From a virus, in the IMG/VR virus record IMGVR_UViG_3300021964_000024, positions 41,815 to 105,814 of that record: a DNA stretch of 64,000 nucleotides; one strand, 5' to 3'. This document shows, piece after piece, positions 7,517 through 62,034 of the stretch (positions within the stretch are counted from its first letter, which is position 1; each line of letters begins with the position of its first letter). Below the pieces are notes generated by a model. The model saw nothing but the letters and a program-made list of their open reading frames with translations. It was not told the origin of the DNA and did no database searches. The position numbers and the translations under genes are program-made.

Positions 7517-7746
7517 TAGTGGATCTTTTCTATCTGATAGTCAAATGGGGCAACAGTCTTGATTTCAAAACTATTACCGTCCGTCTTCACTCCAACTAAG
7601 TGAGTGGGTTTCTTCGTGGTGATCTTCTTCAGATGATAGACACGCTTGGTTGTCTTAGGATCAAACTGCGTTCCACCCTTGTACCAAACGGTTACCACAA
7701 ACTCTTCAGTGAACCAGTCCAACCATAACTTGCGTAACCAACCCAT
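7516..7746 (-). CDS. hypothetical protein
   Basis: 76-aa ORF with RBS, in operon. Confidence 0.6.
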   Translation of the reverse strand: MGWLRKLWLDWFTEEFVVTVWYKGGTQFDPKTTKRVYHLKKITTKKPTHLVGVKTDGNSFEIKTVAPFDYQIEKIH

Positions 7747-7837
7747 GATTCAGTCCTCTGAAGTTAATGCAACATACATCATTGTAATTGCTGCACATAC
7801 AGATACCACTAAAATACCAGCTAAAACAGTTTCCATG

Positions 7838-8083
7838 TTATCTCCTACTATATTTACTTCTACCCTCGTTCAGTAGTTTGAACTTGGATAGTTTCTTCTT
7901 TCTCTTTAATTTAGCGTTTGCAGTATTCTTGATTTCGTTCGGTTTGACATGGAACTGTCTCTTCCTACACTCTGTCACGACTCCCGCTCTATTTACTGCA
8001 CGAGACCATCTTCTTAACATCTTGTCAAACGATTCCTCGTACTTCCCTTTATATCCAACTCTTTTTGGTTCTACTCTTGGCAT
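7838..8083 (-). CDS. rpsU: ribosomal protein bS21
   Basis: ESFDKMLRRWSRAV..GVVTECRKRQFHVKP. Confidence 0.85.
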   Translation of the reverse strand: MPRVEPKRVGYKGKYEESFDKMLRRWSRAVNRAGVVTECRKRQFHVKPNEIKNTANAKLKRKKKLSKFKLLNEGRSKYSRR

Positions 8084-8094
8084 GTTCCTCCTAG

Positions 8095-9096
8095 TTAAAG
8101 TGCATTAATATCTCTATAATCATTGAGATCGAACGCAGTGCCGATCATCTTATGGAGATCTCTATTATGATTAGTATACACTAAAACTTCGGGATCGTCA
8201 AGCAAAAAGTCACAACTTTTACAATAATCTGGATAATTCTTAGTTCTGTGTCCCTCTCTTAGTGCAGAGTATTCAGGGCCACGAATGATTTCTTCTATGG
8301 TATTGACTGACGTATGACCAAGTACAGCTTCTTCATCACGCCCCAAGACTTGACAACAAGGATGAACAGCACCACGGTGACCGTCCATTCCGCCAGCACG
8401 TATAACAACGTCTGGACTAAAAGGTCTTCCACAAGTTTTTACCTCTCCCTTTCTGGCGTTCTTGCCGATATCCCATGCACCAGACCAGTTATGCATTTTC
8501 CATATCTCAGTCTTAACACCTAGTTCCTCGACCAACGCTTTGTATTGTTCTAGTTCTTGTTCTATGTTATCGTTATCAGTTATGAGATGATACGTCTCTA
8601 CAACACAATCAGATCCAGACTCCTTGACATACGCAACCATCTCTTCGATGTTCTTCTTGATCAAATGATAGTTACTACCTCTTGTGTTGTGCATCCATTT
8701 GTCATAGAGTTCTGGGGTGGGGCCAATGAAAGAGAATCTAAAAAAGTCTAGTCCTGCATCAACACAATCTCTCATGAACTGACCCTGCATCTTGAATCCG
8801 TTCGAGAAGATGACCGCCTGTGCATTGTACTTCTTTACGATCTTGATGTATTCGGGTAGGTTACGATTGATCGTTGCCTCACCAGAACCATCTAGGTTAA
8901 CTACTCGCAGTCCGTGTTGTGCACAGTCTGCAACGTTATCCTCGAAGTCCAATAGGTTCATCTTACCTATAAAGTTCTTGTGTCTTCCTCCAGTTCGTTT
9001 GTCCTGTGGACACATTGTACAATCGAAATTACATCCCCCTTGTATTTCGATAACTGCTCTATCTATCTTGATAGAATTGTCTACACCTTTGCTCAT
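8095..9096 (-). CDS. radical SAM protein with SPASM/twitch domain
   Basis: CNFDCTMC, GSGEA, CGRPF, HPCC, CKSC. Confidence 0.9.
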   Translation of the reverse strand: MSKGVDNSIKIDRAVIEIQGGCNFDCTMCPQDKRTGGRHKNFIGKMNLLDFEDNVADCAQHGLRVVNLDGSGEATINRNLPEYIKIVKKYNAQAVIFSNGFKMQGQFMRDCVDAGLDFFRFSFIGPTPELYDKWMHNTRGSNYHLIKKNIEEMVAYVKESGSDCVVETYHLITDNDNIEQELEQYKALVEELGVKTEIWKMHNWSGAWDIGKNARKGEVKTCGRPFSPDVVIRAGGMDGHRGAVHPCCQVLGRDEEAVLGHTSVNTIEEIIRGPEYSALREGHRTKNYPDYCKSCDFLLDDPEVLVYTNHNRDLHKMIGTAFDLNDYRDINAL

Positions 9097-9922
9097 ATTC
9101 TATTGCTCGTTTTTTACTTGAACCTAACATCTCAGATAGGTTGTTCATCCAGTAATATATATTACGTGGGTTATCCTCTTCTGCGTCAGTCTTAACGCAG
9201 TGTGGTGTATGGTAATTAGTAATACCCTCAGTACTCAAAATCACCATCGGTGTTTGAAAGTTACGGGCAATGTAATGCCACATACCATCATAACACACTA
9301 CTTGTCTACACGTTGATATGTGATAGAACGCTTCTGATATAGGTGTTCTATATGTCAGTTCAACGGTATATAATCCTGCCTGACGCATTAAGCTTATTAT
9401 ATCATCCCATTGCTCATGTGTCAAGACCCTTTTCCAAGTTCTTGGTTGTTCTGCATTGAAGGTAGGTCTCCAGACTACTACCTTTCTTTTGTCTATTACT
9501 CTAGGGACATCTCGAAAGATCCAGTCGGGGAATGGTGCGTTACCACCCTCTCTATCGTCGTATACCCCTGACTGAAAAAAGAATCTATTTTTATGACCAC
9601 GATTGATTGCTGCTATACGTAAGGTTCCATCATCTTCTCTTACGAAGTCATCTGCAAATTTCCAATCACTGTATCGTGTAGTTTGTCCATATACATGCCT
9701 CACCTGAACATCATCTTTTCTATAATAGAAATTGTGCATGTACTCCAATCGTTCTATGATTGTTTCCGGATCTTCGAAGTGGTGTAGGTGATGCTCGTCG
9801 TGTTCCCAGTGAAACTCCAGTACTACTTTCTTCTTGTATTCATAACAATAGTTATGGACACAGTTAAGTGCCCACATGAAGTCACCTACACCAGGCGTAC
9901 CTCTCCAAGTTACATATTCCAT
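9059..9922 (-). CDS. glycosyltransferase-like (GT-B/GT9-like)
   Basis: GVGD N-terminus, YDGMWHYIA. Confidence 0.55.
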   Translation of the reverse strand: MEYVTWRGTPGVGDFMWALNCVHNYCYEYKKKVVLEFHWEHDEHHLHHFEDPETIIERLEYMHNFYYRKDDVQVRHVYGQTTRYSDWKFADDFVREDDGTLRIAAINRGHKNRFFFQSGVYDDREGGNAPFPDWIFRDVPRVIDKRKVVVWRPTFNAEQPRTWKRVLTHEQWDDIISLMRQAGLYTVELTYRTPISEAFYHISTCRQVVCYDGMWHYIARNFQTPMVILSTEGITNYHTPHCVKTDAEEDNPRNIYYWMNNLSEMLGSSKKRAIEYEQRCRQFYQDR

Positions 9923-9930
9923 TCATCACC

Positions 9931-10401
9931 TTATACACTGGTTATCAACACTACGGTTCCTCCGATAATAAACGCAGAAATTACCACCGCCGCCAGTATT
10001 GCAATACCATCTTCAAATGCCGCTTTACGATCCGCAGCTTCTTTTGCCGCTTGGATCCTCCGTTGACGTATCACACGTCTCTCTTTCATCATCTCATCGT
10101 AGAAGTCTGATTGTCCGGTATAGATTAAGAAATCCTTGAGTTCCTGTTCCATTTGTGCAATTTTACGTCGAGCAGCAGTCACTTGTAGTGCTTCTGCTTC
10201 GACACTGTTACCGGCAAACAACTTCTTTACTCTTGAGTGTGTTGCACCTTTTATCGCTTCCTCAGATATCTGCTCTTTTGCGTCAAAGAATCGGGCGAAA
10301 TAGTTATATAGGTCTTCTGCTTCTCGACCTGACTCTACCGCCCTTTTAATCATGTTAAATGCAGATCCGGCAAGCGACAATGCCGCTCCGATCTCTACCA
10401 T
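9931..10401 (-). CDS. membrane-anchored coiled-coil protein
   Basis: C-terminal TM helix. Confidence 0.65.
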   Translation of the reverse strand: MVEIGAALSLAGSAFNMIKRAVESGREAEDLYNYFARFFDAKEQISEEAIKGATHSRVKKLFAGNSVEAEALQVTAARRKIAQMEQELKDFLIYTGQSDFYDEMMKERRVIRQRRIQAAKEAADRKAAFEDGIAILAAVVISAFIIGGTVVLITSV

Positions 10402-14070: not shown

Positions 14071-14895
14071 CTAAGCAAGTATCTTAAATTTACCTTCTTT
14101 GGCATGGCGTAACATATCGATTTTCCAACCACCACCAGTGTAGTGACACATCTTTGCCTTCTCAAAGAACTCATCTTCAGTGGCATAATGGGGGGAGTCG
14201 TTCCATGTCTGATCCAGTGCTTCGGTGTTTAGATCGAAGTCGTGTTTGATCAACTGTCCAGATATGTACGGTTGATCATTCATCACCGACATATGGAACT
14301 CTGGTTTTGCGTAGAACCATTCTGTCCAGTCCATGAATACCTCACGTGCACGTAGACGTGCCTCACGTGTCCATACGACAATACCTGTATTCAGGACAGT
14401 TAACTTAGATGGTCTACTAGGTGGTAGTGATGGGACAATAGGAATGTCGTGCATAGAGAACTTTGCAACAAAGTCTTGATATGTCTTTTCCTTGTAGTCC
14501 CAAGAGTTATACCCACCACCATTCGATGTGACGATATCACTCTCAAGTACACCAAAGACATCTCCGTCTTCACACAGATCAAAGATGTTCTCTTCGGTGT
14601 TTACTACAATGTCGGTATCGGCAAATAACACCTTGTCATACTGGTCAAACATAGGATCATAGATAACCCTCAAACACTCAAACAAAAGAGCGTTTGCATG
14701 GTCATGTCCTGCAGTGTACACTTGCTCATCTGAGTAGAAGTACTCTGCATCAATAATATCAGCATACTCTAGAAAGGAACGTCGAGATAAATCTGCTACC
14801 TCACGATAGACTTGACTTCTCTGTCTTCCCTCAATCTCTCCCCTTTCGTCTACATTAGGGTTGAGTACCATGTATTGAAATATCGCATTTCTCAT
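14071..14895 (-). CDS. glycosyltransferase (GT-A)
   Basis: FADTDI, NTGIV, NDQPY, HYTG. Confidence 0.8.
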   Translation of the reverse strand: MRNAIFQYMVLNPNVDERGEIEGRQRSQVYREVADLSRRSFLEYADIIDAEYFYSDEQVYTAGHDHANALLFECLRVIYDPMFDQYDKVLFADTDIVVNTEENIFDLCEDGDVFGVLESDIVTSNGGGYNSWDYKEKTYQDFVAKFSMHDIPIVPSLPPSRPSKLTVLNTGIVVWTREARLRAREVFMDWTEWFYAKPEFHMSVMNDQPYISGQLIKHDFDLNTEALDQTWNDSPHYATEDEFFEKAKMCHYTGGGWKIDMLRHAKEGKFKILA

Positions 14896-19477: not shown

Positions 19478-19912
19478 TTAGGTTTTTATTAGGTTTGGAA
19501 AGGTCTCCTCCGTTAGTTTTTTAGTTAAGTATTTCACTGGTGGTTGCTTATTCACCATTGACAAAACGAGTTCCGCATCTGCGGGATGGATTGCTTCCAA
19601 CAATCGGATGAACATGTTCTCCCTTTTGTACGCTGGCATGTTATCGCCGGGCCCGCCTTTCACAAAGTATCCAAACTCTTTGTGTTTTTTCAGTAGGGTA
19701 GAGGGAACAGATTCCTCCCGATTAGGAGTGAATGGGGGTTTTCCTTCGGGGAGAAGGAATTGTAGAGAGTCATCAAATGTGCCTCTCAGTATGTCTTTAA
19801 ATGCAGGAACGTCTGCGTACTTCAATAGTACTTCCTTCCTTTTCGCTTTACTTGTTTGTTGTTCAAATTCTTCAAAGATCTCGAAGACCTGTTTCACAGT
19901 ATAGTGTACCAT
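19478..19912 (-). CDS. conserved T4-like hypothetical protein
   Basis: LLPEGKPPF, KRENMFIRLLE motifs. Confidence 0.75.
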   Translation of the reverse strand: MVHYTVKQVFEIFEEFEQQTSKAKRKEVLLKYADVPAFKDILRGTFDDSLQFLLPEGKPPFTPNREESVPSTLLKKHKEFGYFVKGGPGDNMPAYKRENMFIRLLEAIHPADAELVLSMVNKQPPVKYLTKKLTEETFPNLIKT

Positions 19913-26068: not shown

Positions 26069-26221
26069 CTATAAGGGAGATTTTCGTTTAAGAACCTTCG
26101 CAAGCAGTTCATCACGCTTACGTTTCTTTTTCTTTTTCACTACCACTGTAGAGGCATCATCACCCGTACCAACTACGGATGCTGTCGTTGTGTCCTCAGC
26201 ATGTGTTTTAAATTTCTTCAT
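26069..26221 (-). CDS. small basic protein with capsid-targeting-like N-terminus
   Basis: MKKFKTHAE...Lys-rich tail, RBS GAGG. Confidence 0.6.
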   Translation of the reverse strand: MKKFKTHAEDTTTASVVGTGDDASTVVVKKKKKRKRDELLAKVLKRKSPL

Positions 26222-27409: not shown

Positions 27410-27417
27410 TATTTATA
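27410..27417 (-). promoter_or_regulatory. T4-type late promoter
   Basis: TATAAATA. Confidence 0.7.
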
Positions 27418-28829: not shown

Positions 28830-29303
28830 TCATATTTTTACCCAATAGGATTTTTCGTAACTCTGTAACATATACTCTTTATACATGACACCTGTCTCTT
28901 GCGATATGTCACCCAGTACGTCTTTTACTGATTCGTGATTCTCTACTCTCCACTTATCTATATCTATTCCTCTCTGACCGTGCAACCACGGAGTGACCAT
29001 TATCCACCCATCATTGACTTCGGTAATGAATCCACATTGATCCGGTCTTGTTTCTAAATCAAGACCATACTTCAGGTATCCACAATCAAAGGATCGGCAG
29101 ACGTGCGGTCTCTTTTCGTAGATTTTACAGTCACCGGATTTCGAGCACAGTTTATTACAACCGGATCCCCAGTCGTATTTGATACCCTCTTTCAGGGCGA
29201 CTTTCTGCGATAGGATGATATCAGGATCTTGTCTGGTGTACCAGTTGTCGTGAGTGAATCCTAGTGAGTCGCAACAAGCCGTGCAATCTCCACATGGGTT
29301 CAT
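28830..29303 (-). CDS. YkgJ-like Cys-cluster (Zn/Fe) protein
   Basis: CGDCTACC, CKIYEKRPHVCRSFDC. Confidence 0.8.
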   Translation of the reverse strand: MNPCGDCTACCDSLGFTHDNWYTRQDPDIILSQKVALKEGIKYDWGSGCNKLCSKSGDCKIYEKRPHVCRSFDCGYLKYGLDLETRPDQCGFITEVNDGWIMVTPWLHGQRGIDIDKWRVENHESVKDVLGDISQETGVMYKEYMLQSYEKSYWVKI

Positions 29304-29662
29304 AGATTTCGTAACCTATCCACCACGAACATATCTTGATCGATACCGACCAGATCATTACCTTCAAGTGCTTTCAAAAAGATAAGAAACGGTTTGAGAG
29401 CAGACCAGTGTTCTGGTTCTATCTTGAGTGCTAACATCTCAACACCAGATTCGAATCCCCAACAATTGAAGATCACGATCAGGTGATTAAGGATGAGTCT
29501 TTCGGAGAGTTCTTGTGTGTCTCTATAACGATTGAGTAATCGCTTGACATACTTGAATCGTTTGATGTCATCGAAGAATTCTTCACTGTCTATGCAGGTA
29601 GGATTATAATAATTCTGCGCTGCATAGAGCGTGAAGGTTTTGGGGGTCAGTTCTAATTTCAT
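29300..29662 (-). CDS. conserved T4-like hypothetical protein
   Basis: YYNP.C, ERLILNH motifs. Confidence 0.75.
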   Translation of the reverse strand: MKLELTPKTFTLYAAQNYYNPTCIDSEEFFDDIKRFKYVKRLLNRYRDTQELSERLILNHLIVIFNCWGFESGVEMLALKIEPEHWSALKPFLIFLKALEGNDLVGIDQDMFVVDRLRNL

Positions 29663-30011: not shown

Positions 30012-30770
30012 TTACTCAGGGGTTTTACCAGAGAGAATCGCACGAATCACTTCGAACTCTGTCATCTCTTTTTTCACTTTAACATCTTTAGGTGGTAAAA
30101 CCTTTTCCATGTCTTCGTGATCTTTTTTGTCAACTTTATGTTTAGCAATGAAGTCCTTACCAGACTTGGATTCTTTGTCATCCATCTTCTCTGCTTCTGT
30201 TGCACCCTTTGCCTGAGCAGCTTTTGCTTCAAACATTGCATCAATAGCATGGAGTAACTCTGCAGTTGCGTCAGATAGGTCTACACCCATGTAACTCTCT
30301 TTCTTGGTTTTACCGTGCTTCTTCTCACCAATTTTAGAGATCTCGGCAGTCTTGTCGGCAGTGCGAGGGTTCTTATCCTTCTTCTTAGGATCTTCAGGTT
30401 TTTCGTCTTCACCATCAGCGTCTACAGGATCTTCTTCTTTCTCATCCTTTTCTGCTTCTGACTCTTCCTCATCACCATTTTTCTTTGGAGGGAAAGGCTT
30501 CTTCTTCTTCTCTTCGCCTTCCTCTTCGTCTTCTGATTCTTTCTTCACTGCATTCTTGGCAGGTTTCTTACCACCGTCGATTGCATCGTCCGTTGCGGCA
30601 CGTCTCTTATGAAGATACTCATCTGAAGAATCTACGTCTCCATCGTTATCGATATCCTTGTCCTTACGATCTTTGAACTTCTTGTCGTTCGCTTTATCGT
30701 CTACAGGATCAAGTTTGTTTTTTTCGGAGACCATTTCCAAATATGCCTCCATAGTTTTTTGAATTGACAT
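30012..30770 (-). CDS. highly charged putative internal head/core protein
   Basis: K/E/D-rich, DIDNDGDVDSSDEYLHKRR motif. Confidence 0.6.
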   Translation of the reverse strand: MSIQKTMEAYLEMVSEKNKLDPVDDKANDKKFKDRKDKDIDNDGDVDSSDEYLHKRRAATDDAIDGGKKPAKNAVKKESEDEEEGEEKKKKPFPPKKNGDEEESEAEKDEKEEDPVDADGEDEKPEDPKKKDKNPRTADKTAEISKIGEKKHGKTKKESYMGVDLSDATAELLHAIDAMFEAKAAQAKGATEAEKMDDKESKSGKDFIAKHKVDKKDHEDMEKVLPPKDVKVKKEMTEFEVIRAILSGKTPE

Positions 30771-30780
30771 TGTTAGTCTC

Positions 30781-31062
30781 CTAGAACCAAAACATTTTAA
30801 TTAGACCACCCAACAGTATTGTCGTAGTGACCCATGCAACTTTATTTATAATCCCCACTGTGTGAGCATTCTCGTTTACCTTCACCTCTATCTGATCTAA
30901 CTTTTGAGAGAAGCGGTTCATCCTATCGAAGTTAGCGTGATTGTTTTTTTCAATCGCTATCAACTTCTCTTCCGCTCTCGCCAGACTGATCATTGCGTCT
31001 GAAAGTTTATCTATTTTACCCTCGATCCTATCGAGACGTTTAGCTTGTGTTTCTGCTGCCAT
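30781..31062 (-). CDS. coiled-coil plus C-terminal TM protein (XhlA/holin-like)
   Basis: RLDRIEGKID heptads, terminal TM. Confidence 0.55.
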   Translation of the reverse strand: MAAETQAKRLDRIEGKIDKLSDAMISLARAEEKLIAIEKNNHANFDRMNRFSQKLDQIEVKVNENAHTVGIINKVAWVTTTILLGGLIKMFWF

Positions 31063-31101
31063 GTGAGGACTTTCCCATTTAATAAAGTACAAATATACTT
31101 C

Positions 31102-31109
31102 TATTTATA
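31102..31109 (-). promoter_or_regulatory. T4-type late promoter
   Basis: TATAAATA. Confidence 0.7.
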
Positions 31110-31395
31110 CAGTTTTAATTCTTATGACTAGTTGATCTTCACCTTTTATGACTCTATGAAAGGTCATTTTTGGTATAAACAACTTGTCACCCTTGTTTAA
31201 TAATCTAGGAAGTTCGTTGTCAAACTGGAATTTCCAACCTTGTCCAGTCTGTTCAATATAGACATACCTGTCCTCACTATCCATATGCCAAATGTAATCC
31301 ATTGGATTACTGTGTATATCAAATGATCTTAGAACATCTCCGTTCATCAACTCATATTGAGTATATGGTCTACCAGAAGAAGTTTCCACCACCAC
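31105..31395 (-). CDS. cupin-like protein
   Basis: WHMD.EDR, FHRVIKG. Confidence 0.65.
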   Translation of the reverse strand: MVVETSSGRPYTQYELMNGDVLRSFDIHSNPMDYIWHMDSEDRYVYIEQTGQGWKFQFDNELPRLLNKGDKLFIPKMTFHRVIKGEDQLVIRIKTV

Positions 31396-31882
31396 TTAAT
31401 CCTAGTTGCTTTGCGTATCTAGGCAATCTACATGCCCAGTATGCCGCAGAAGTTTTGTCATTCTGTTGTGCACACTTGTGACGTGCAGCGAATGACTTAC
31501 GTGCTTCAGGATCATTCAACTTGACCTTGAGTCCAGTCGTATCACCCCATGACACTTTCTTAATGTTACCAGTAGATGGATCCTTGACGTACACGTAGTA
31601 CTTCTTCGGGCCACCTGCCTTTGGTTTGTTCAGTTCTGGTTGCTTCTCTTCTTCGAAGATACAGTCCAGTGCAACGTGTTCACCATTGAACTCTGCGAAC
31701 TCACCAAGGTTTGATTCCATGATGTCTACTTCGTTTGGTTGAACCTCAATATCACCGTTCTGATACTGTTCACGCTTTTCACGCCAGTACTCGAAGTATC
31801 TCTCAGATCCTACACGGTATGGATTGTCCTCAACTAGTTTGGACTCAGATCCGCATTCGCAATGTTCGTTAAATGTCTTCAT
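31370..31882 (-). CDS. putative internal virion protein
   Basis: MKTFNEHCE; RKSFAARHKC...YWAC motif. Confidence 0.65.
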   Translation of the reverse strand: MKTFNEHCECGSESKLVEDNPYRVGSERYFEYWREKREQYQNGDIEVQPNEVDIMESNLGEFAEFNGEHVALDCIFEEEKQPELNKPKAGGPKKYYVYVKDPSTGNIKKVSWGDTTGLKVKLNDPEARKSFAARHKCAQQNDKTSAAYWACRLPRYAKQLGLSGGGNFFW

Positions 31883-33003
31883 GTGATATACGTATTCAGT
31901 TCGTACTTACCACCACCCATGCCATAGACTTGGACTGCAAGTTTCTTTTTAGGATTGTCCTTGAGTTTCAGTGTGAAACTGTTGGTCTTACCGTCAGAGG
32001 GTTTCTTCGGCCCCATAGCGACTTGACGGTCTACATCATCCATATCAACTTCATGTCCCTTCTTCTTCGCCCATGCATATGCGTGTTGCATTGCCGCAGA
32101 GTAAGTCTTGTGATATAGGTCATACCCAGACGAAGACTTAGAACCCATCTTAGGTGGTTCTTGCTTCTTTGGTGTTGCCCTACGTTGACCACGGTAGTAT
32201 GCTTCACGAATCTGTGAGAGAGGTTTACCGACTTCCTCTTTTACAATTTTGGTCATGACCGCAGCCATGTCACCCAGTGCAAGTGTTGCGTCCTTACCAC
32301 CACGACTGTACAGGAAGTACTTCATGCCGCCTGGCTTACCCTTGGGATACATCTGGATCTTATCCACGTTGTACTTAGCACTACGTGACTTACCTTTTAC
32401 AACAAAGGTAGTAGTAGTCCCTTTACGAATAGATGAGTCATAAGTGATAGTGACTTCATCACCCTTCTTCAACTTATCGAAATCTTTACGAGGCATCGCC
32501 ATTTCACTCAACGTTGATTCTTTCAATTTATAACCCATCTTGTCAAACTTGTCGTGATCTGCAGGAGTATTTACTTTAACGCTTTTACCTGTCTTAGGAT
32601 TATACATCATATGAGGTTCGAAGTCAACACTTTCACCTTTCTCTTTCTTAGAGATTGCGATTGCCGCTTGTTGTGCAGGGGATACTGCTTCGTTCTTACT
32701 TCTAAGTACTGCAGCTACCTGTTTGTGCTTAGACAAACCTTTCTTGATCTTTTCGATTGCCTTGACCGCACCAGTGTAGTTACCACCCGCATATCGTTTA
32801 TCAGATGCAACACCGATTGCCATCTTGATTTCTTTGGGGGTGAAACCCTCCGCAACCTTCTTAGCCTGTGCAGTAGCGATTGCCATTTTCTTATCCATTG
32901 GCATGTCTGGATCGTCTTTCTCAATCGCTTTTGCAATTTCCTCACGCTTCTTTTTCTCAGCGGGAGTAAGGGTCTTTTCTCTTAGGGAATCAAAACTTCT
33001 CAT
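31879..33003 (-). CDS. putative internal virion protein, modular
   Basis: MRSFDSLRE; repeated L/V/I-x-E junctions. Confidence 0.65.
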   Translation of the reverse strand: MRSFDSLREKTLTPAEKKKREEIAKAIEKDDPDMPMDKKMAIATAQAKKVAEGFTPKEIKMAIGVASDKRYAGGNYTGAVKAIEKIKKGLSKHKQVAAVLRSKNEAVSPAQQAAIAISKKEKGESVDFEPHMMYNPKTGKSVKVNTPADHDKFDKMGYKLKESTLSEMAMPRKDFDKLKKGDEVTITYDSSIRKGTTTTFVVKGKSRSAKYNVDKIQMYPKGKPGGMKYFLYSRGGKDATLALGDMAAVMTKIVKEEVGKPLSQIREAYYRGQRRATPKKQEPPKMGSKSSSGYDLYHKTYSAAMQHAYAWAKKKGHEVDMDDVDRQVAMGPKKPSDGKTNSFTLKLKDNPKKKLAVQVYGMGGGKYELNTYIT

Positions 33004-33278
33004 CTTGGCCTCGGTGGTTGGTATCCTGCTTTCTTCAGAAGGTCTTTTGCTTTTACACGATCATGGTACATGAACTGATACTGCTTACCATTCTTTAAAT
33101 CCTTAACGATGTAACTCTTCGGCCCCATCTTAATGATCTTACCTTCTCTCTTATCACCGTTCTCACTCTTGTAGAAATCAACCTCTCTACCTACACTGAT
33201 AGAGTTCTTGGTTTCAGCACCCATACCTTTAGTTGCGAGAACACGGTAATTCTCTCTTAATTCTTTAAACGTCTTCAT
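33000..33278 (-). CDS. putative internal virion protein (SH3-like)
   Basis: MKTFKELRE. Confidence 0.65.
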   Translation of the reverse strand: MKTFKELRENYRVLATKGMGAETKNSISVGREVDFYKSENGDKREGKIIKMGPKSYIVKDLKNGKQYQFMYHDRVKAKDLLKKAGYQPPRPR

Positions 33279-33547
33279 GCCAGATCCTTGTCGTGATTAA
33301 GGTTACCCTTCTTTTTCTTAACTATAAATGCATTGACTCGTGCCATTCCCCACTGCTGTGGTGTAGTGCCGGGTCTATGCCCTGTTTTCCATGCAGCGAC
33401 TCCACGATTGTATACCTTCTTCAATGTCTCCGGAGAGATACCAGACTTCTTTGCTTTTGCCGCAATGCCATCTGGGCCTTCTTTGACATCAAGAGTATCG
33501 TATAGAGAATAACGCCCCTCTTCCAAATACTTACTAAAACCTATCAT
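33275..33547 (-). CDS. putative internal virion protein
   Basis: MIGFSKYLEE; VYNRGVAAW..GHRPG...QQWGMARVN. Confidence 0.65.
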   Translation of the reverse strand: MIGFSKYLEEGRYSLYDTLDVKEGPDGIAAKAKKSGISPETLKKVYNRGVAAWKTGHRPGTTPQQWGMARVNAFIVKKKKGNLNHDKDLA

Positions 33548-35169
33548 TTGGTTGCCCTATTTTTTTGTTTAGCACGAGCGAGTCGTGCACGATCTAATAA
33601 CTTGTCGTGTTTGATCTTATCTGATTCTTTCTCACGTTCGATGTCTGCACGTGCATTCTTAACTGGATCGGTTTCTTCGTTTTTAACCATCTTACCCAGT
33701 GCTCTGACATCTAACTTGAGTCCGTGTTTACGAACCAACTCTGAAGCATAGTACTCAGGGGAGTGTCTGTTGTTGTCCTTCTCCATCTGTTTCTTGATGT
33801 AGTCTGCAACTTGACTATACTGTTTTTTCTGTATAGTTTTAGACATCCATCTCCTTAACATCTGAGGGGTAGTCTCTGCATTGAGACACATCTCAAACGA
33901 GATCTCTAAACCCTCACTGAGTTGTGCGTCAGTGTAGAACCTCTTCAGTTCACGGTTGAGACCAGAGAGCATTGCAGGTTTTAGGAGTTTGAAAATGACA
34001 CCCTTGTCGGTGTTTCCGTCGAACTTCAACACGCCCTTCTTCTCGTATTTCTGGAGAATGTCTACGACCTTATCTTCATCCTTACCCAAGTTGTCCATAC
34101 GGACGTGTACTTCTTTCTCTTTCGCTTCGTTGTACATATCCTTGAACGCCTTCGTGTACTTCGAAGGTTTGGTCTCTGCACTCTTATCGCCAGGCGCAGG
34201 TTTGTACGCAGACGAATCGTCATCGTCTTTCTTACCGTGCTTCTTGAAGTGTGCGTCTCTCTTTGCCTTGGTGGACTTCTTCAGTCCTGCATGATATCGG
34301 GCAGGTTGAGTTCCCTCTCTATCTTTGATATCTGGGTCTTGTTTTTCAACGAGTTCGACTGCATCCAACCATTTGCGTAGTCGAGTGCCATCTGTGCGTT
34401 CGACGATAACGTAATTTGCTCCGAGCACTGAGACTGTAACCAGTTCGTCATTTTCTTTGACAACCACTGTGTCACCGACCTCATACAGTTCCCCCTGTAC
34501 GTATTGTTCTCTTGTTTCTGAAACAGGTTTTAGTGAGATGTGGTTCTTGAATTCGGTAGTCTCTTTGAGACCCATACCAGTACGCACATCATTGAATAGT
34601 TTACGTGCGTCCTTGTTGGACATTGTTTTTGGTACACCCTGAGAGAATGTAACGAAGTCATTCTTAGAGGCGTTCTCACGTTGCTTAGATGCAGACATAC
34701 CTTCTACACCCGCCGCATCTGGATCACGTGCACCCGCAGAGATCACATTGATACTCTTGAAGTTGTAGAATCCGTGACGTGCCTTCTTACCGTTGTACTT
34801 GTTCAGGAGAACTTCAAACTCACGGATGCGATCTTCACCCACAACCATGTTGACCTTGGTGTAACCTGCATTGTAAAGTTTGTTTGCAACGTCGAATACA
34901 TTGCGACAGTCCTTATCCATAATCACTTGACGTGCATGTTTTGGAAACATTTTACGCACGTGCTTGATCTTATCTGAGTAGGACAGAGGATCTTTCTTAG
35001 GATTAGATACCTGAGATAAGTATACCTTGTAGTCTGACTTACCTGACTTAGATGCAAGAGTGTCCATAACCTTACCATGTCCTATGGTAGGTGGGTTCAT
35101 ACGTCCGAAGGTAAAGTAGACTTCTCTCTCTTCTTCTAGTAGGTACTGCGAGAAATTCTTAATCGGCAC
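33544..35169 (-). CDS. HIGH-class nucleotidyltransferase (cytidyltransferase/NMNAT-like) with C-terminal modules
   Basis: TFGRMNPPTIGH, VGEDR, MSASKQR; N-term IKNFSQYLLEE; GTG start inferred. Confidence 0.8.
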   Translation of the reverse strand: MPIKNFSQYLLEEEREVYFTFGRMNPPTIGHGKVMDTLASKSGKSDYKVYLSQVSNPKKDPLSYSDKIKHVRKMFPKHARQVIMDKDCRNVFDVANKLYNAGYTKVNMVVGEDRIREFEVLLNKYNGKKARHGFYNFKSINVISAGARDPDAAGVEGMSASKQRENASKNDFVTFSQGVPKTMSNKDARKLFNDVRTGMGLKETTEFKNHISLKPVSETREQYVQGELYEVGDTVVVKENDELVTVSVLGANYVIVERTDGTRLRKWLDAVELVEKQDPDIKDREGTQPARYHAGLKKSTKAKRDAHFKKHGKKDDDDSSAYKPAPGDKSAETKPSKYTKAFKDMYNEAKEKEVHVRMDNLGKDEDKVVDILQKYEKKGVLKFDGNTDKGVIFKLLKPAMLSGLNRELKRFYTDAQLSEGLEISFEMCLNAETTPQMLRRWMSKTIQKKQYSQVADYIKKQMEKDNNRHSPEYYASELVRKHGLKLDVRALGKMVKNEETDPVKNARADIEREKESDKIKHDKLLDRARLARAKQKNRATK

Positions 35170-35539
35170 TCTGACTTCCCTTCTTCTTTCTTGCAAGTTC
35201 TGCTTTGCGAACTTGTGGAATCATCTTACGTGCTAACTTGTCGATAACCGCTTTCTTCTTATCCAGTTGTTTCTCTATGTTCTGTCTACGAGACATAGAG
35301 AGTTCTGCCTTAGGAATGTCTTTGGTTATCTTCTTGAGTAATACTTCACGTGCAGCTTTACGTGCACGTTTCTTGAGAACGTCTAGACTAGCAATTTTCT
35401 TTGCCGCTCTCTTTCTACCGATAGCGATCTTTGCTTTGTTCTTTTTGAATGCACGTGAGCGAGCCATGCGTTGTTGCATGGACAATGCCTCGTCGGGAGA
35501 CTCGCTAAATTGTTTGAATCGTAACGGACTATCCGCCAT
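35159..35539 (-). CDS. basic putative internal virion protein
   Basis: LRFKQFSE, R/K-rich. Confidence 0.65.
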   Translation of the reverse strand: MADSPLRFKQFSESPDEALSMQQRMARSRAFKKNKAKIAIGRKRAAKKIASLDVLKKRARKAAREVLLKKITKDIPKAELSMSRRQNIEKQLDKKKAVIDKLARKMIPQVRKAELARKKKGSQSAD

Positions 35540-35541
35540 TT

Positions 35542-36762
35542 TTAATTCCTCGTAGGTTTATCCCATCCTTTAAGTATATCTGGTGAAAAGTTGTTGTATG
35601 AAAATTCCATACGATCAACAAGTTTCACTGCATCACCACCAAGTATATCGATTGCAACGTAACCCTCTTCTCCGGTTACCTTATACCCTTGATTTGTTTT
35701 GACAAAAGTATCAATCTTCTTCAAACTGTTAAGTTTATTTATAAGTTTTAGTTTCGCAAGTATGATGACTTTTTGCAATTCAATCATTTTTATTAGACTC
35801 GCCTTGTTCGTAGGTGAGAAGAATACCATGATTGCATCTAATTTGTCCTGTTGTGTTTTCTTTCCTCTTGCGGTGCTTCGTGCATTGATTTGCTTCTGAT
35901 ACTTCTGCTTAATCCAACGGATAAGTCCCGCAACATGTCTTCTTGAATCGGGGATAACTGTTCCCGCACGTACATACGTGTTGTAGTATTGTTCGATAAG
36001 TTTTGCGAGATCTTCGTTCGCTTCGAGCGTCCTAAGAGTCGTTCCCGAAATTTGGTTAAACAACTTACCGGCTTGCGATAGATACCCATTGACCTCTTCT
36101 GTCTCCTCTTGCGTCATGGTTGCTTTAGTCGCATCCGTCAACATGGCATCCTGAGACCAAACATTACTTGATTTTTTGAATCCTTTTACGTTTACACCAT
36201 ACGATGCTTTCATGTTTTCGAATGTAGTACCGTTATATGTAGTATGCCACACTATACCGATTTTTGCAGATCGTATCTCTGCAGCGGCATCATAGGGTAC
36301 TGCATATGCGATTGTGTTGGGGTGAAATACTGTGTACTTCTCTTTGTCTATTGTTTTGGTTTCAAGGTCATCTGAACTGAACAGGAAGTCTCCCTGTATC
36401 ACACCCTTGATACCTAGATCTGGTAGATACTGCAAAGCAGCTTTCATCTTAGATGCAAGATCACCAGACATATCTGCATCGATCTCTGCATTAGTCTTAT
36501 AGACCTTTGGGTTCTTTGCAAAGATACCTTTCTTCGCCACAAAGAACTCACCGTCTCGTGGATCTTCACCACAGAAAATTGCAGGTGCACCATCCCACTT
36601 AACAGAAACTCTTCCGTCCTTTTTACCAGATAACATATCACGCAGTTCACGTAGTGCATTGATTGCTTGACGTGTACCGTTCACACCACCATAGAGAACC
36701 TTGTCCTCAATATGGGTCATGTGGGTGTTCTTCTGTTCTGTGATAAACTCTGCGAAATTCAT
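35542..36762 (-). CDS. ATP-dependent ligase-like covalent nucleotidyltransferase (putative)
   Basis: KWDG, QGD, EGYV, VKLVDR; N-term MNFAEFITE. Confidence 0.65.
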   Translation of the reverse strand: MNFAEFITEQKNTHMTHIEDKVLYGGVNGTRQAINALRELRDMLSGKKDGRVSVKWDGAPAIFCGEDPRDGEFFVAKKGIFAKNPKVYKTNAEIDADMSGDLASKMKAALQYLPDLGIKGVIQGDFLFSSDDLETKTIDKEKYTVFHPNTIAYAVPYDAAAEIRSAKIGIVWHTTYNGTTFENMKASYGVNVKGFKKSSNVWSQDAMLTDATKATMTQEETEEVNGYLSQAGKLFNQISGTTLRTLEANEDLAKLIEQYYNTYVRAGTVIPDSRRHVAGLIRWIKQKYQKQINARSTARGKKTQQDKLDAIMVFFSPTNKASLIKMIELQKVIILAKLKLINKLNSLKKIDTFVKTNQGYKVTGEEGYVAIDILGGDAVKLVDRMEFSYNNFSPDILKGWDKPTRN

Positions 36763-37472
36763 AGTTTGACCAGTATACCTTCTGCAAAGACGGAACCAAA
36801 CGTTGAACCGGACAAAGAACGCAACTGCATCTCAATGTCCGTCTTCTCATCATACTTGAACGGTGCTTGTCTCACGATATTCATGTTCTCAAAGAAAGTT
36901 GTATCTGCGACTCTCAACTGTCTTCCATTTGAAGCCGTCAAAAAGTTTCTGAATCGAGCCGCTTTACCACCGTTCGCATCTGTACAGAATGCATCGATAC
37001 GAGTCAAAAAGAAACAGTGTCCTGCTGGCACCGTGTATACCGATTTTTGATCTCTACCAGTCCCCGCAAGAATCTTTGCGTATGTGGTTCCGCCATTAGA
37101 GACGGTGATATCACCAACTGCATTTCCGACTGTGATCACCGCATCATTGATTCGATAGAAAGAGTTTGTCGTTGTGACGGTAGTTGTACCGTTTACGGCA
37201 ACCACTTCACTGATAGGATTGCAATCCCCGTCTAGTCCTAGAAGTAGGAGAGATATCCCAGTATCCCCCGCATCAGAACTAACCACAGACATGGTTACTG
37301 CCGAAGATGGGAACGCATAGTTTGATGCCTCTTCCCAAGGGGTTCGAAACTCTGAGGTAACGATATTATCCGTACCGCCTGTGGTTCCGAAGATGTTACG
37401 CACCGAAGTGTTGACTACCAACTCCCGTGCGATATTTAATTGGACATCATCTATATAGTGTGATATGGCCAT
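36759..37472 (-). CDS. beta-rich hypothetical (possible virion) protein
   Basis: Thr/Gly/Val-rich, VYTVPAG motif. Confidence 0.55.
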   Translation of the reverse strand: MAISHYIDDVQLNIARELVVNTSVRNIFGTTGGTDNIVTSEFRTPWEEASNYAFPSSAVTMSVVSSDAGDTGISLLLLGLDGDCNPISEVVAVNGTTTVTTTNSFYRINDAVITVGNAVGDITVSNGGTTYAKILAGTGRDQKSVYTVPAGHCFFLTRIDAFCTDANGGKAARFRNFLTASNGRQLRVADTTFFENMNIVRQAPFKYDEKTDIEMQLRSLSGSTFGSVFAEGILVKL

Positions 37473-37473
37473 G

Positions 37474-38781
37474 TTACATTACCTTTAAGTGGACGGCAGA
37501 ATCTGCTGATTCTGATTTGGCAACCCTGTACAACAGGGTCATTAGTTGTTGCTCTCTACCTTTTACCATAGTGAACATAGTTGTCACGTAGTACTTAGAG
37601 ACTAACCAGTTAGAATCTTTGTTCTTTAGTTTAGTGCCAAATGTTTGACGGTCAACAGGGTTGTCAATCGCACCAGTATAGAATCCATAGAACTTATCAA
37701 GGAACGCTTCCCTGTCACTACGGATCTCTGCTTCAATTGTTTTACGAACCTCAAGACGATTACGAGTAGTCGCATACAATGCGGCATCAATACCACCCTG
37801 AGATACCTTACCATGCTTTGCCTTCTTACCAATGATCTCACACTGGAACGTAGGGAAGGTACGGAATTGAATCTCAAGACCGCCCTGACCAAACAAGTAT
37901 CCGTCCTTTGACTTAAAGAAGTCATTACGCTTGTTGTAGGACACAGCACGGAAGACAGGTGGTTTAAATGGTTTCTTGTAGTTGACCTGAGATATTCTAG
38001 GTTTACCACTAGCAGCTTTCTTCAGTGAGATACCAAGAATGTCACGTGCTGCATATGCCTTGAGTAATTCTTGATTGAGTGCTTTGATGGATCCTGCACC
38101 CTCAATATCATACGCACCCTCTTTACCAGATTTGACCATCCAGATGTCTGCAGGTGTCCACTTATTAACGTCTTGGAATAATTTCTCTGCACGGTTCAAC
38201 TCTTTGAACTTGTTTTCCAAAGCAGTGACCCAAGGTGATCCACGATGGAAACTATATGTTCCCTGTTTCTTTAGAACCTTATATAAGGTACGTGCGACAT
38301 CAATAGATGATGCAATCCATTTTTCATCTCTTAACATCACTTCATCTGCAGTTGCATCGACGTGAACTTTAGCGTATGCGTTCTGGATTGCTTCGGGTGT
38401 GAACTGAGTTGTGGGATCGTCCCACACTGCTTGAAGGTAAACACACTGTGCAGACTCAGTTGCTTTAGTGTTGTCAGATCCACCACCGGATCCACGACCA
38501 CCACCAAACTCTTTGGTCTTTGCTAGTTTACCAAATGAAATTTTGTTCCCTGCATTGTCTTCTAGACCAATGCTGTTTGCAGTTTTACTGTCTTTTGCCT
38601 TGAGTGCTTTTTCAATCTCTGCGTTATACTTCAGGACAACCGTACCACCGGCTGATAACTCAAACGGTTCATTACCCTTGTACTTTCTCAAGAACAATTC
38701 TAGTCGGAACGCCCTGTCATCACGAGTGATCTCACCAAATGTGAGATTACCTTCTGACAGAAAGCTAGAAAATTTTAACAT
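37474..38781 (-). CDS. PD-(D/E)xK-like nuclease with capsid-targeting-like N-terminus
   Basis: ESAQ, KWTPADIW, GISLKK; N-term MLKFSSFLSE. Confidence 0.6.
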   Translation of the reverse strand: MLKFSSFLSEGNLTFGEITRDDRAFRLELFLRKYKGNEPFELSAGGTVVLKYNAEIEKALKAKDSKTANSIGLEDNAGNKISFGKLAKTKEFGGGRGSGGGSDNTKATESAQCVYLQAVWDDPTTQFTPEAIQNAYAKVHVDATADEVMLRDEKWIASSIDVARTLYKVLKKQGTYSFHRGSPWVTALENKFKELNRAEKLFQDVNKWTPADIWMVKSGKEGAYDIEGAGSIKALNQELLKAYAARDILGISLKKAASGKPRISQVNYKKPFKPPVFRAVSYNKRNDFFKSKDGYLFGQGGLEIQFRTFPTFQCEIIGKKAKHGKVSQGGIDAALYATTRNRLEVRKTIEAEIRSDREAFLDKFYGFYTGAIDNPVDRQTFGTKLKNKDSNWLVSKYYVTTMFTMVKGREQQLMTLLYRVAKSESADSAVHLKVM

Positions 38782-38823
38782 TAATCGGTCTCCGTTTCTT
38801 TACTGTTGCCCACAGTATACCAC

Positions 38824-38831
38824 TATTTATA
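38824..38831 (-). promoter_or_regulatory. T4-type late promoter
   Basis: TATAAATA heading the 31.1-38.8 kb block. Confidence 0.75.
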
Positions 38832-40830: not shown

Positions 40831-42025
40831 ATTTTGTCATTTTTGCACTAATTTCGAAATTTCCATTATTCATCTCGTGAATGAACCCCTCTGGAATGAC
40901 CTTATCACAGATCACCAGTCCGATTCTCCCATCCGGAGTTCTCTTTCGCATATGCCTAGATACTCTGTACTCACCATCAATTATATCAAGTCCACAAGGA
41001 ATTGCAACCCCATAGGACTCATGCAGATGGTAGGGGTAGATCGAATCCGGTTCCTTTGGCATCACAATCAACTTGTCAACGTCATTTGGGAATGCATCTC
41101 CAAGGATCTCTGGTTTCCCTCTCAATGATTCAAGGTACTCATCTCCAGTTACAAAGTAAGGTAGACTGCAGGTTTGTTCTGGTCTCACGTTGATCTCACA
41201 GAAATACCAGTCACCATTTGGTGTACATAGTCCAGTAATCTGACCAACGAAAGATGACTTGTCACATACATCTTTAGTAATCCAGTCCAAGATAACCACC
41301 GCATTTTCTACAGTGATCTCTTCTACCCATTCTGGTAATGGTTTAAAACTAGAGGTCTTAGTCCAGTGTTGAAACTTACCTGCAAGTTTTGCGGTATCTT
41401 CACCAATGATTTCTTGAGTGTGTCGAATAGACCACTTACCCTTCGCAACAACAAAATCTACATTAGTTTCTATTGTGGGTTTGGGTATGTACTCTTCATA
41501 GAACATACCTTCTGCATATTCATCTCTACTAAAACGATCTGCTTCACTTTGAGTCATGCAGATACTTACGTGGTCAGTTGGTTTAGGAATTCGTATTGGT
41601 TTTGCCACACAAGGTGCAATAGGTTTTCTGACTTTAGGACACAATATGTTTCGACGCAACATGGACTCTCGCACTGCCCACTTACCAGTCTCTAACATTG
41701 CAGTAGGTCTGTAAAGTCCAAGGTACTCAAAACGATCCTGATCAATAATGTTGGAATCACTTAGATGTCCTAGTATAGGATGAGTGTTGATCACTATTTC
41801 TCTGTCAGAATTATTCAACCACTTCATCAATACCGAATCTCTATTCTCGGCATTGACGATCTCAACACCATATTGATCCCAGAACTTGTGAGGAACATCT
41901 TCAAAGTGTTCATATGAAGAAGTCACGACTTTTACATCGTGACCTGATTTTACTAGTTCAAGGATATTATGGAAGTTGCACCAACCATAATCGATGATAA
42001 GAATTTTACTCACCGAGGTCTTCAT
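40829..42025 (-). CDS. ATP-grasp domain protein
   Basis: LETGKW, PCVAKP, YEEYI, FCEINVRP. Confidence 0.7.
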   Translation of the reverse strand: MKTSVSKILIIDYGWCNFHNILELVKSGHDVKVVTSSYEHFEDVPHKFWDQYGVEIVNAENRDSVLMKWLNNSDREIVINTHPILGHLSDSNIIDQDRFEYLGLYRPTAMLETGKWAVRESMLRRNILCPKVRKPIAPCVAKPIRIPKPTDHVSICMTQSEADRFSRDEYAEGMFYEEYIPKPTIETNVDFVVAKGKWSIRHTQEIIGEDTAKLAGKFQHWTKTSSFKPLPEWVEEITVENAVVILDWITKDVCDKSSFVGQITGLCTPNGDWYFCEINVRPEQTCSLPYFVTGDEYLESLRGKPEILGDAFPNDVDKLIVMPKEPDSIYPYHLHESYGVAIPCGLDIIDGEYRVSRHMRKRTPDGRIGLVICDKVIPEGFIHEMNNGNFEISAKMTK

Positions 42026-60295: not shown

Positions 60296-61093
60296 TTATA
60301 ACAGATCACATAGTACTTTGTCAAGCTGATCAGGATTTGATATCAGGGCACGTGCAAACAACTGGACTAGAGTGTTATTGATTCTGTACTTGATCCACCC
60401 ATCTGTCGCACTCTTAAAGTACTGGTTAGCGTTCTTGGTGTGAGTCCAGAGTCCACGTTGCAATGCGTTCGCAGTTCTACCTCCGTATCTGACCTCCATG
60501 ATATAGTCACCGTACCTATCATAGAACCTATAGACCGGATGCTTTCTTCCAGACCCAGACTCAAGTAGTCGTATGTATCTGGTATTCAACTCTGCCTTTC
60601 TTGCATTGAAAACAAGAATGTTGCACTCTAGTTTATTCTCCTTGTAGATCAAGGGTAGGACATTCATCTTACCGAAGTGACTGAACGCTTCGTGATCAAA
60701 GACATCCTTAATTTCTTCTGGATCAGTAATCTCTGATCCGTAGGATTCTAGTAATGGAAACATGAGACATTCTTTGTCAGTAGACAATTGCAGTGGCCCG
60801 TCTCCGTATGCCTTCAGACTGATAGGGAACTCATCGTAGTTATCAGTATTCGTTACTATCACGTCCTCTTCGTGTCCCTTAGAACGGAACAACTCTTTAC
60901 CCACATGGATACAGTTGTATCCTTTCATGTGTTCGTTGATGAACTCAGTGATCGCAACTTCTGCAAGGTCACCATGGGTCTTGTTACCAATGACCCGCAT
61001 GGTAAAGATATTACTCAGGGTATCGGTTAGTTCTTTTTTCTTATATTTGGATAAGGATAACAGGTCTTCATTAAATTTAGTAAATGCACTCAT
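60296..61093 (-). CDS. type II restriction endonuclease-like protein
   Basis: GDLAE...EEDVIV...ISLK (PD-(D/E)xK variant). Confidence 0.55.
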   Translation of the reverse strand: MSAFTKFNEDLLSLSKYKKKELTDTLSNIFTMRVIGNKTHGDLAEVAITEFINEHMKGYNCIHVGKELFRSKGHEEDVIVTNTDNYDEFPISLKAYGDGPLQLSTDKECLMFPLLESYGSEITDPEEIKDVFDHEAFSHFGKMNVLPLIYKENKLECNILVFNARKAELNTRYIRLLESGSGRKHPVYRFYDRYGDYIMEVRYGGRTANALQRGLWTHTKNANQYFKSATDGWIKYRINNTLVQLFARALISNPDQLDKVLCDLL

Positions 61094-61634: not shown

Positions 61635-62022
61635 AGAAATCCTCCAAGGACGGTTGTTTTTGACCAGTTACGAATTCAAGAAATCCACTTTCCGAAACGT
61701 CTTTAATAAAAAGTGACTCCCAATTAGTAGAACCATCTTTGTTCAATCGATACCAGTGTTTAATATCTCGATCTTCTCGATATTTTTTCATAGAGTGATT
61801 GTCGGTGTTCCACGCATTTTTCACAGACCAGTAGACACCATCTACAATGTAGTCAACACCTTCCGGTCTGTTTTTATCCCTACCAACAAAGATAACATTA
61901 TCTGGCAATTTAGAATTTATATAATCTTCCAACAAACGTCCAACGTTCTGTTGCAGTAAACGAATTCTTTTGTACACTTCGATATCCGATTTAGTAAAAA
62001 ATTTTTCTATAATACTATCCAA
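61627..62022 (-). CDS. SinI-like restriction endonuclease with C-terminal clamp-binding motif
   Basis: [25 protein letters not shown]; ends SLEDFFG; TTG start after GGAGG inferred. Confidence 0.6.
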
Positions 62023-62034
62023 AGAAATCCTCCA
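61628..62034. repeat. 19-bp direct repeat flanking the nuclease gene
   Basis: TATCCAAAGAAATCCTCCA at 61628-61646 and 62016-62034. Confidence 0.9.

Follow-up and report, generated by a model that had tools for sequence, protein, structure and literature searches.

A putative T4-type capsid targeting sequence shared by late gene products of an uncultured marine T4-like myovirus

The internal proteins IPI, IPII and IPIII of phage T4, and also Alt, carry the N-terminal capsid targeting sequence (CTS) MKTYQEFIAE (Mullaney and Black, 1996; reviewed in PMC9026906 and PMC3012670). For packaging, the ten N-terminal residues of IPIII are enough; residues 4 and 7 of the CTS serve in targeting and residues 8 and 10 in processing, and Asp at position 10 blocks the cleavage but not the targeting (PMC9026906). 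The DNA considered here (the window) is a stretch of 64,000 nucleotides, positions 41,815 to 105,814 of the IMG/VR record IMGVR_UViG_3300021964_000024. It makes up the right-hand part (64 kb) of a viral contig that measures 105.8 kb and has a completeness of ~62%. An earlier note on the window had claimed that an N-terminal tag of the T4 CTS type marks unrelated late proteins, most of them encoded in one block, for packaging into the head. This central claim was supported by the positions of the conserved residues, by the modularity of the tag, by the virions of related phages and by the gp21 and gp23 proteins of these relatives. We consider it likely that the block is a late operon, most of whose products start with a T4-type CTS and would be packaged in the head, cleaved and ejected. 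For about seven or eight of the proteins, there is good support for a role of the tag in capsid targeting.

The resemblance to the T4 internal proteins extends to several features. In both cases, a tag of 9–10 residues, with an aromatic residue at position 4, a hydrophobic one at 7, an aliphatic one at 8 and Glu at 10, is attached to unrelated proteins and encoded by late genes; in the present case, a protease of the gp21 type and the gp22 scaffold are features of the phage lineage. Portability is likewise common to both, as judged from natural sequence arrangements here and by experiment in T4. Nevertheless, the present phage is of the Kyanoviridae type and not one of the Straboviridae, position 4 is more often Phe than Tyr, a short form of the tag is common and its distance from the initial Met varies. 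Whereas T4 has three to four cargo species, about eight are predicted here, many of them sizeable enzymes, and they are encoded in one operon; their cleavage and ejection are proposed by analogy. The payload had been described earlier as much larger than IPI–III; the contrast was a little overstated, because T4 packages the enzyme Alt too.

The virion NMNAT-like/cytidylyltransferase T4-GC190 of cyanophages provides a second comparison, since the window encodes, at 33544–35172, a member of the same family in the same genomic block. With respect to the proteome reports of T4-GC190, a kinase and a SAM hydrolase in virions, the shared tag described here would supply a mechanism, and it adds a DUF6267 protein and others to the set.

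Other counterparts are also available. The incorporation of the Dar proteins of phage P1 is hierarchical and proceeds via protein-protein dependencies, and is not known to involve a common cleavable decapeptide. In phiKZ and SPN3US the propeptides are long and the cleavage motif is S/A/G-x-E; a short N-terminal decapeptide that their head proteins have in common is not known. The giant phages phiKZ and SPN3US contain many head-internal (ejection or inner-body) proteins, which are packaged along with the DNA, trimmed after Glu by a gp21-related protease and ejected (PMC5694885; PMC7411985), and the Dar proteins (DarA, DarB, Hdf and others) form a defence-countering set that is built into the head at assembly and delivered with the DNA (PMC9024508; PMC12810830).

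Form, enrichment and conservation of the tag

The ten N-termini quoted in the earlier note were all recovered at their genes, on the minus strand. The motif-enrichment check proposed there was also run. Across the entire contig of 105.8 kb, 10 of 137 heuristic open reading frames (ORFs) have F-x-x-[FYL]-x(1,2)-E among their first 16 residues, where the frequency of the motif inside proteins predicts 1.3 (binomial P ~9e-7). Eight of these ten matches fell within one late operon (38781 to 31370). When the motif was anchored, it was present at 8 gene starts and after only 3 of 648 internal Met residues. A pattern defined a priori from the T4 CTS was run over 139 ORFs and picked out four tagged proteins. 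As a positive control, the same type of pattern was applied to T4, where ipII and ipIII were recovered together with a few false positives such as dda and, unexpectedly, with gene 61.1. In the contig, a motif match in the DNA polymerase (62015–63985) was discarded, because this ORF is open where the window ends and a TTG had been taken falsely as its start, and the match at 19478–19912 is probably due to chance.

The product of T4 gene 61.1 (NC_000866, 18966–19130; 54 aa, hypothetical) starts with MKTFKEFIKE, a near-perfect CTS, and its gene adjoins the primase gene 61; in cyanophages, the tagged block likewise adjoins gp61. Judged by its sequence, the 61.1 product may belong to the small internal proteins of T4 without having been recognised as one of them.

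The long form of the tag can be written as M-x-x-F-x-x-[FY]-[LI]-x-E, where x is variable. Canonical tags (Phe 4, Phe/Tyr 7, Leu/Ile 8, Glu 10) were present on the 435-aa, 290-aa and 90-aa proteins, and the DUF6267 protein and the cytidylyltransferase have the canonical tag with Met shifted by one or two residues. The short form, M-x-x-F-x-x-L-x-E, was found on the 92-aa and 374-aa proteins. More generally, Phe at positions 3–8, followed three residues later by Phe, Tyr or Leu, occurred in eight proteins of the block and in the 290-aa kinase, and L/I-x-E was present in the 435-aa, DUF6267, cytidylyltransferase, 90-aa, 92-aa, 374-aa and 290-aa proteins. Eight virion-verified tags of ten residues were also used to train a position-specific matrix, with which the 435-aa and 290-aa proteins alone scored clearly. 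Shifted and short tags are beyond the narrow range of this matrix; therefore, patterns and conservation in homologues were relied on.

The tag was strongly conserved in homologues. For the cytidylyltransferase, it was present in 120 of the 120 nearest homologues and, in a diverse set of 150 metagenomic representatives, in at least 70 of the 111 that were full-length; about ten others begin directly at the first strand of the domain. The Glu-ending pattern was found in 118 of the 120 nearest homologues of the DUF6267 protein, and in one more behind an over-long called start. In the DUF6267 alignment, F3, E9 and K55-W-D-G58 were invariant and F6 and I7 were conserved at 90% or above, with positions 2, 4 and 5 varying freely. 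Similarly, E10 was invariant and F4 conserved at 90% or above in the 435-aa family (48 homologues of 47–82% identity; mean column identity 57%). Long and short tags interchange among 120 homologues of this family, with the same conserved mature start behind them, so the short tag is regarded as a variant of the same signal. In near homologues of both the cytidylyltransferase and the DUF6267 protein, the tag always ended in Glu, with no case of Asp, the pattern that a Glu-specific protease site would produce. Furthermore, across 80 related viral loci the orthologues of the tagged genes keep their tags, and those of the 237-, 96-, 93- and 252-aa proteins were never tagged.

A similarity of this kind could also derive from common descent, from duplication of a gene start or from an mRNA-level feature of the translation-initiation region, with no function of the peptide. 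The genes are translationally coupled, and the overlap of starts with stops would impose shared constraints on the start regions; moreover, the AT-rich codons AAA, TTT and GAA are common at gene starts. Nevertheless, the codons of the conserved tag residues differ from gene to gene, which places the repeat at the level of the peptide and not of the DNA. The protein families are unrelated, Phe and Glu are invariant in hundreds of homologues while the variable positions drift, and the motif almost never follows an internal Met. An origin of the tag without peptide function is thus extremely unlikely.

The claim that the tagged proteins are unrelated held up, as the tag sits on proteins of unrelated families. 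It also lies outside their folds. The Pfam profile of DUF6267 begins at residue 12 and the kinase profile phrog_5268 at residue 17, both past the tag, and in the AlphaFold models the tag has a pLDDT below 50, being unstructured in the 435-aa protein and an isolated helix in the DUF6267 protein. The DUF6267 protein and the cytidylyltransferase of Syn1, and the DUF6267 protein of S-SM1, are without a tag and begin at the conserved domain. The metagenomic proteins P0352 and P0377 (863–910 aa) are large fusions of a P-loop kinase, a nucleotidyltransferase-like domain and the cytidylyltransferase; each has a single tag, located at its extreme N-terminus, and the junction with the cytidylyltransferase is free of it. 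The order in P0352 is tag, P-loop kinase (of the same type as the 290-aa kinase of the window), nucleotidyltransferase and cytidylyltransferase, and because these three enzymes are fused elsewhere in this way, they may work together in one pathway. In P0334 a linker of 110 residues separates the tag from the domain, and in P0255 a basic protein of the 126-aa type is fused to the cytidylyltransferase with its internal tag kept. Taken as sequence arrangements, these cases indicate that the tag behaves as a portable N-terminal label, independent of the attached fold.

Tagged proteins in cyanophage virions and the proposed packaging

Absence from virions had been named as one observation that would speak against packaging; tagged relatives were, however, detected by mass spectrometry in purified particles of S-SM1, S-CREM2 and S-SCSM1. 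For S-SM1 virions, 25 peptide counts were reported for the cytidylyltransferase T4-GC190 and 7 for its neighbour GC1455 (Sullivan et al., 2010; PMC3037559). The corresponding proteins, SSM1_190 and SSM1_192, both start with the tag, which in SSM1_192 is of the short class, and the untagged DUF6267 protein encoded beside SSM1_190 is not in the virion list. When S-CREM2 was scanned, four of the four strict tag matches belonged to its published virion proteome (PMC10665884), with a chance probability of ~0.003. These were the SAM hydrolase ORF6, the kinase ORF14, ORF15 and the cytidylyltransferase ORF154. The virion proteins ORF13, ORF136 and ORF12 of this phage are also tag-like. In ORF12 (7704–10313, annotated as a 'CRISPR-Cas9 nuclease') the tag core PLRFASFMAE lies at residues 17–25; the true start may be downstream of the annotated one, or else extra residues in front of the tag are tolerated, as in the 126-aa protein. 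Finally, the virion-detected NMNAT ORF91 of S-SCSM1 (PMC9602691) starts with the tag.

The authors of these proteomes noted the frequent detection of such enzymes and left open whether they are cargo or contaminants (PMC3037559; PMC9602691; PMC10665884). No packaging signal is named in these papers, and the term 'internal protein' is absent from that on S-CREM2 (PMC10665884). In our literature searches, made outside the subscription journals, no report was found that connects cyanophages with a capsid targeting sequence.

Contamination of the particles by late proteins, with an N-terminus that signals a non-capsid fate (degradation, chaperone binding or a membrane-association helix), would account for these detections in another way. 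It was raised as a possibility by the authors of two of the proteome papers and would fit the low peptide counts (1–4) of ORF13, ORF15 and ORF154 of S-CREM2. This explanation is nonetheless very unlikely. Tagged proteins are selectively the 'non-structural' ones in three independent proteomes; the 25 counts of the S-SM1 cytidylyltransferase compare with 18 for the portal and 25 for gp6; the untagged DUF6267 protein next door is absent from the same list; and the motif agrees with the T4 CTS at each residue and is similar to the site at which gp23 is cut.

The maturation site of gp23 reads GSFLTE in T4, GGFLTE in C48C1, GQILTE in S-SM1 and GLLTE in S-CREM2, each at the homologous position, giving the pattern [FIL]-L-T-E. 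T4 gp23 is cleaved after the Glu of GSFLTE. No gp20–gp23 genes were found on the contig at its 62% completeness, and hence neither a gp21-type protease nor a gp22 scaffold gene. A gp21 homologue of the Peptidase_S77 family is present in C48C1, Syn1, S-CREM2 and S-SM1; in the three cyanophages compared by BLAST, it was 39–45% identical to T4 gp21.

According to the packaging model, the aromatic residues at positions 4 and 7 would bind the gp22 scaffolding core during prohead assembly, so that the protein is enclosed; the gp21-type prohead protease would then cut behind the Glu of L/I-x-E, leaving the mature protein free inside the head, and the cargo would exit with the DNA at infection. The predicted cargo would comprise the NMNAT-like cytidylyltransferase, the DUF6267 protein with its K-W-D-G motif, the Zeta-type kinase, the 435-aa protein (a possible nuclease), the basic 126-aa protein and several others. 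Core binding, ejection and any role of the enzymes in the host are proposed by analogy with T4.

The tag could also serve to package proteins that remain in the head as scaffold-core, DNA-condensing or capsid-internal components and are not injected as effectors. The 126-aa protein, which is extremely basic, resembles a neutraliser of DNA charge, and a tagged 65-aa protein of C48C1 sits where T4 has gp67 and gp68. Enzymes with no obvious role in a capsid (the NMNAT-like transferase, the P-loop kinase and the SAM hydrolase of S-CREM2) argue against residence in the head, and so does the fact that the T4 proteins with the same tag, IPI–III and Alt, are ejected. Overall, a head-resident function of the whole set is unlikely. 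The 65-aa protein of C48C1 (14434–14631; tag MRTFKELRE) is encoded between the portal gene gp20 and gp21, beside a very acidic 122-aa protein. The T4 core proteins gp67 and gp68 occupy this gp20–gp21 region.

Several observations weigh against packaging by the tag, or against its extension to all of the candidates. L/I-x-E is replaced by F-S-E in the 126-aa protein, H-C-E in the 170-aa protein and H-A-E in the 50-aa protein, and the distance from Met to the tag varies by one to five residues. Cleavage after Glu in cyanophages would follow from the analogy with T4. The proteome papers warn that abundant late proteins could co-purify with the particles. Conversely, there are virion proteins without a tag, namely S-SCSM1 ORF90, S-SM1 SSM1_188 and the 237-aa family; because some virion proteins of the block are untagged, the tag is not the sole route into the particle. 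The tag-like products of S-CREM2 106821–107282 and 149124–149501, as well as S-SM1 SSM1_196, are not in the virion lists. Finally, the source phage is uncultured and its contig incomplete, without the gp20–gp23 region.

With all of this considered, five of the tags are graded as strong, two or three as moderate and three as weak, the weak members being the 126-aa, 170-aa and 50-aa proteins. The earlier estimate of about ten packaged proteins consequently stands for about seven or eight; the remaining three lack the aliphatic residue at P3 or a conserved Glu. The tag claimed for the 50-aa protein (26069–26221) is present as MKKFKTHAE, but it is weak, with H-A-E in place of L/I-x-E.

The late operon and its individual genes

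The contig comes from a marine T4-like myovirus that is uncultured and of the Kyanoviridae type. It is placed among the T4-like phages of the cyanomyovirus type by its gene content and by the nearest record, Phage C48C1 (OQ984149, Kyanoviridae), whose DUF6267 protein shares 69% amino-acid identity with that of the window. A megablast search with the block gave no close phage record. Nearly all of the genes are carried by the minus strand, among them those of the block and of the 290-aa, 50-aa and 265-aa proteins; the promoter boxes at 38824, 35736 and 31102 are on this strand too. The tagged block adjoins replication genes and forms one operon of ten consecutive genes, from the ATG at 38781 to 31105, with stops and starts that overlap or abut.

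The T4-type late promoter box TATAAATA was found ten times in the window, against 2.15 expected from shuffled sequences, at sites that include 38824, 35736, 31102, 30843, 27410 and 2279. The earlier note had placed late promoters before the operon and before the separate gene at 1373–2245, and both boxes were confirmed. The box at 38824–38831 lies 43 nt upstream of the first ATG of the operon (38781), and that at 2279–2286 upstream of the 290-aa kinase gene (1373–2245). A second box of the block (35736–35743) is located within the DUF6267 gene, upstream of the 126-aa gene, and another (31102–31109) lies ahead of two untagged late genes (30012–31062). The box at 27410 is upstream of the gene group holding the gene of the 50-aa protein. 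Late expression of the tagged genes is predicted from these boxes. Scans of the block for terminators and sigma-70 promoters performed no better than chance.

The first gene of the operon (37474–38781) encodes the 435-aa protein, with the canonical tag MLKFSSFLSE. It is 31% identical (E 1e-28) to S-SCSM1 ORF90, annotated as 'virion protein' in that record. Its AlphaFold model has a pLDDT of 88 overall and below 50 at residues 1–9, and E109, P-x-D212 and S252-L-K254 are invariant in the family. The protein had no sequence match in the PDB, and Foldseek searches with the model found nothing. With VIA-align the best Z was 3.7, with long, weak alignments to MspI, HinP1I and a Cas4-family protein. 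Going by the model, the protein may have a new fold or may be a PD-(D/E)xK nuclease that has diverged from the MspI/HinP1I type; a nuclease fold is not claimed, because these alignments are too weak.

The following gene (36759–37472) encodes an untagged 237-aa protein. Over 198 aa, it shares 31% identity with ORF176 of S-CREM2, which is abundant in the virion of that phage (20 unique peptides). None of 27 homologues has the tag. By this relationship it is probably a virion structural protein, and would presumably enter the particle as a structural part and not by means of the tag.

The 406-aa DUF6267 protein (35542–36762) starts with the tag MNFAEFITE and matches the Pfam family with an E-value of 9e-102. 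It had no sequence match in the PDB; its AlphaFold model was moderate (pLDDT 68), Foldseek and VIA-align gave generic helical-bundle matches only, and the Atlas search returned DUF6267 clusters only. A ligase function was considered and is kept as a lead only, since its sole basis is the invariant K-W-D-G; a relaxed Pfam scan of the N-terminal half gave no ligase family.

The very basic 126-aa protein (35159–35539) has a displaced tag core, MADSPLRFKQFSE (..PLRFKQFSE). Its orthologues keep P-L-R-F-K-x-F, often without the Glu, and that of C48C1 has the canonical MLSFKQFVSE.

The 542-aa cytidylyltransferase/NMNAT-like enzyme (33544–35172) has the tag (M)PIKNFSQYLLEE. Its true start is most likely the GTG at 35172 and not the TTG at 35196, because the GTG is preceded by the ribosome-binding site GAAGGG. 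The protein matched phrog_395 (E 2.6e-68) and the Pfam family CTP_transf_like (PF01467; E 5.9e-5, a match that passes the cut-off of the family), and it carries T-I-G-H-G as the motif of an HxGH nucleotidyltransferase domain. On these profile matches it is assigned to the phage cytidylyltransferase/NMNAT-like family (T4-GC190, phrog_395). No PDB sequence match was found. A DUF5824 region is split between this protein (profile positions 1–60) and the product of the 90-aa gene (positions 63–125). Each of the two products has its own tag, and in other phages the pieces belong to one protein (phrog_3041, 678 positions). The 90-aa protein, which holds the second half of DUF5824 (33275–33547), has the tag MIGFSKYLEE, and its orthologues retain MI[NGS]FKKYL.E.

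Two proteins with tags of the short class follow. The 92-aa protein (33000–33278) starts with MKTFKELRE, which is kept in its few orthologues. The 374-aa protein (31879–33003) starts with MRSFDSLRE, its orthologues with MK[ST][FIL]KELRE and that of C48C1 with MKDFFELRE. A relationship of the 374-aa protein to S-SM1 SSM1_191 was ruled out by comparison. The window also encodes a DUF7207 protein (29300–29662), whose counterparts in S-SM1 and S-CREM2 start with M-K-F-D-E-L-N-E and M-N-F-S-E-L-N-K and are absent from the virion lists. As these are tag-like and yet not listed in virions, short-class look-alikes can belong to a fold, which calls for caution.

The degenerate and weak tag of the 170-aa protein (31370–31882) is MKTFNEHCE. 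Its orthologues conserve MK.F.[ED]H[CT].CG and not the Glu, and that of C48C1 has the canonical MKKFKQYIDE. The last gene of the operon (31105–31395) encodes an untagged 96-aa protein. The two untagged late genes behind it (30012–31062) encode proteins of 93 aa, with a C-terminal hydrophobic stretch, and of 252 aa, with acidic low-complexity sequence. The 252-aa protein was also considered as a homologue of SSM1_191 and rejected, since the two had a common short motif and the BLASTP comparison was not significant.

Outside the block, the 290-aa protein (1373–2245) is a P-loop kinase of the Zeta-toxin/AAA_33 type with the canonical tag MQSFNSFLKE and its own late promoter, and the 50-aa protein (26069–26221) is basic. 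A 265-aa protein (60296–61093) that starts with MSAFTKFNE belonged to no Pfam or PHROG family and may be an extra member or a chance match.

Biological meaning of the tagged set

The system described here is probably the known CTS system of T4 as it occurs in another phage family, where the cargo is larger and richer in enzymes, and the CTS rule (positions 4, 7, 8 and 10) is conserved far beyond the T-even phages. The shared tag offers a mechanism for enzymes that were left unexplained in three published cyanophage virion proteomes. Additionally, the gain and loss of the tag among lineages, the fusions with a single tag and the split gene with a tag on each piece amount to natural experiments on what the tag needs.

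A more speculative idea, which we regard as doubtful, is that the decapeptide is a general, genome-readable address label for the proteins that marine T4-like phages inject, and that the recurrently tagged and in part fused set of the kinase, the nucleotidyltransferase, the NMNAT-like enzyme and the DUF6267 protein (K-x-D-G) forms a pre-made nucleotide, NAD or RNA-repair kit against abortive-infection defences. Delivered with the DNA, such a kit would counter NAD depletion or tRNA cleavage before phage gene expression.

The two families searched had thousands of metagenomic relatives each. With the tag rule, the set of packaged and probably injected proteins would become predictable for thousands of uncultured marine T4-like phages, and candidate early-acting effectors could be selected by their tag.

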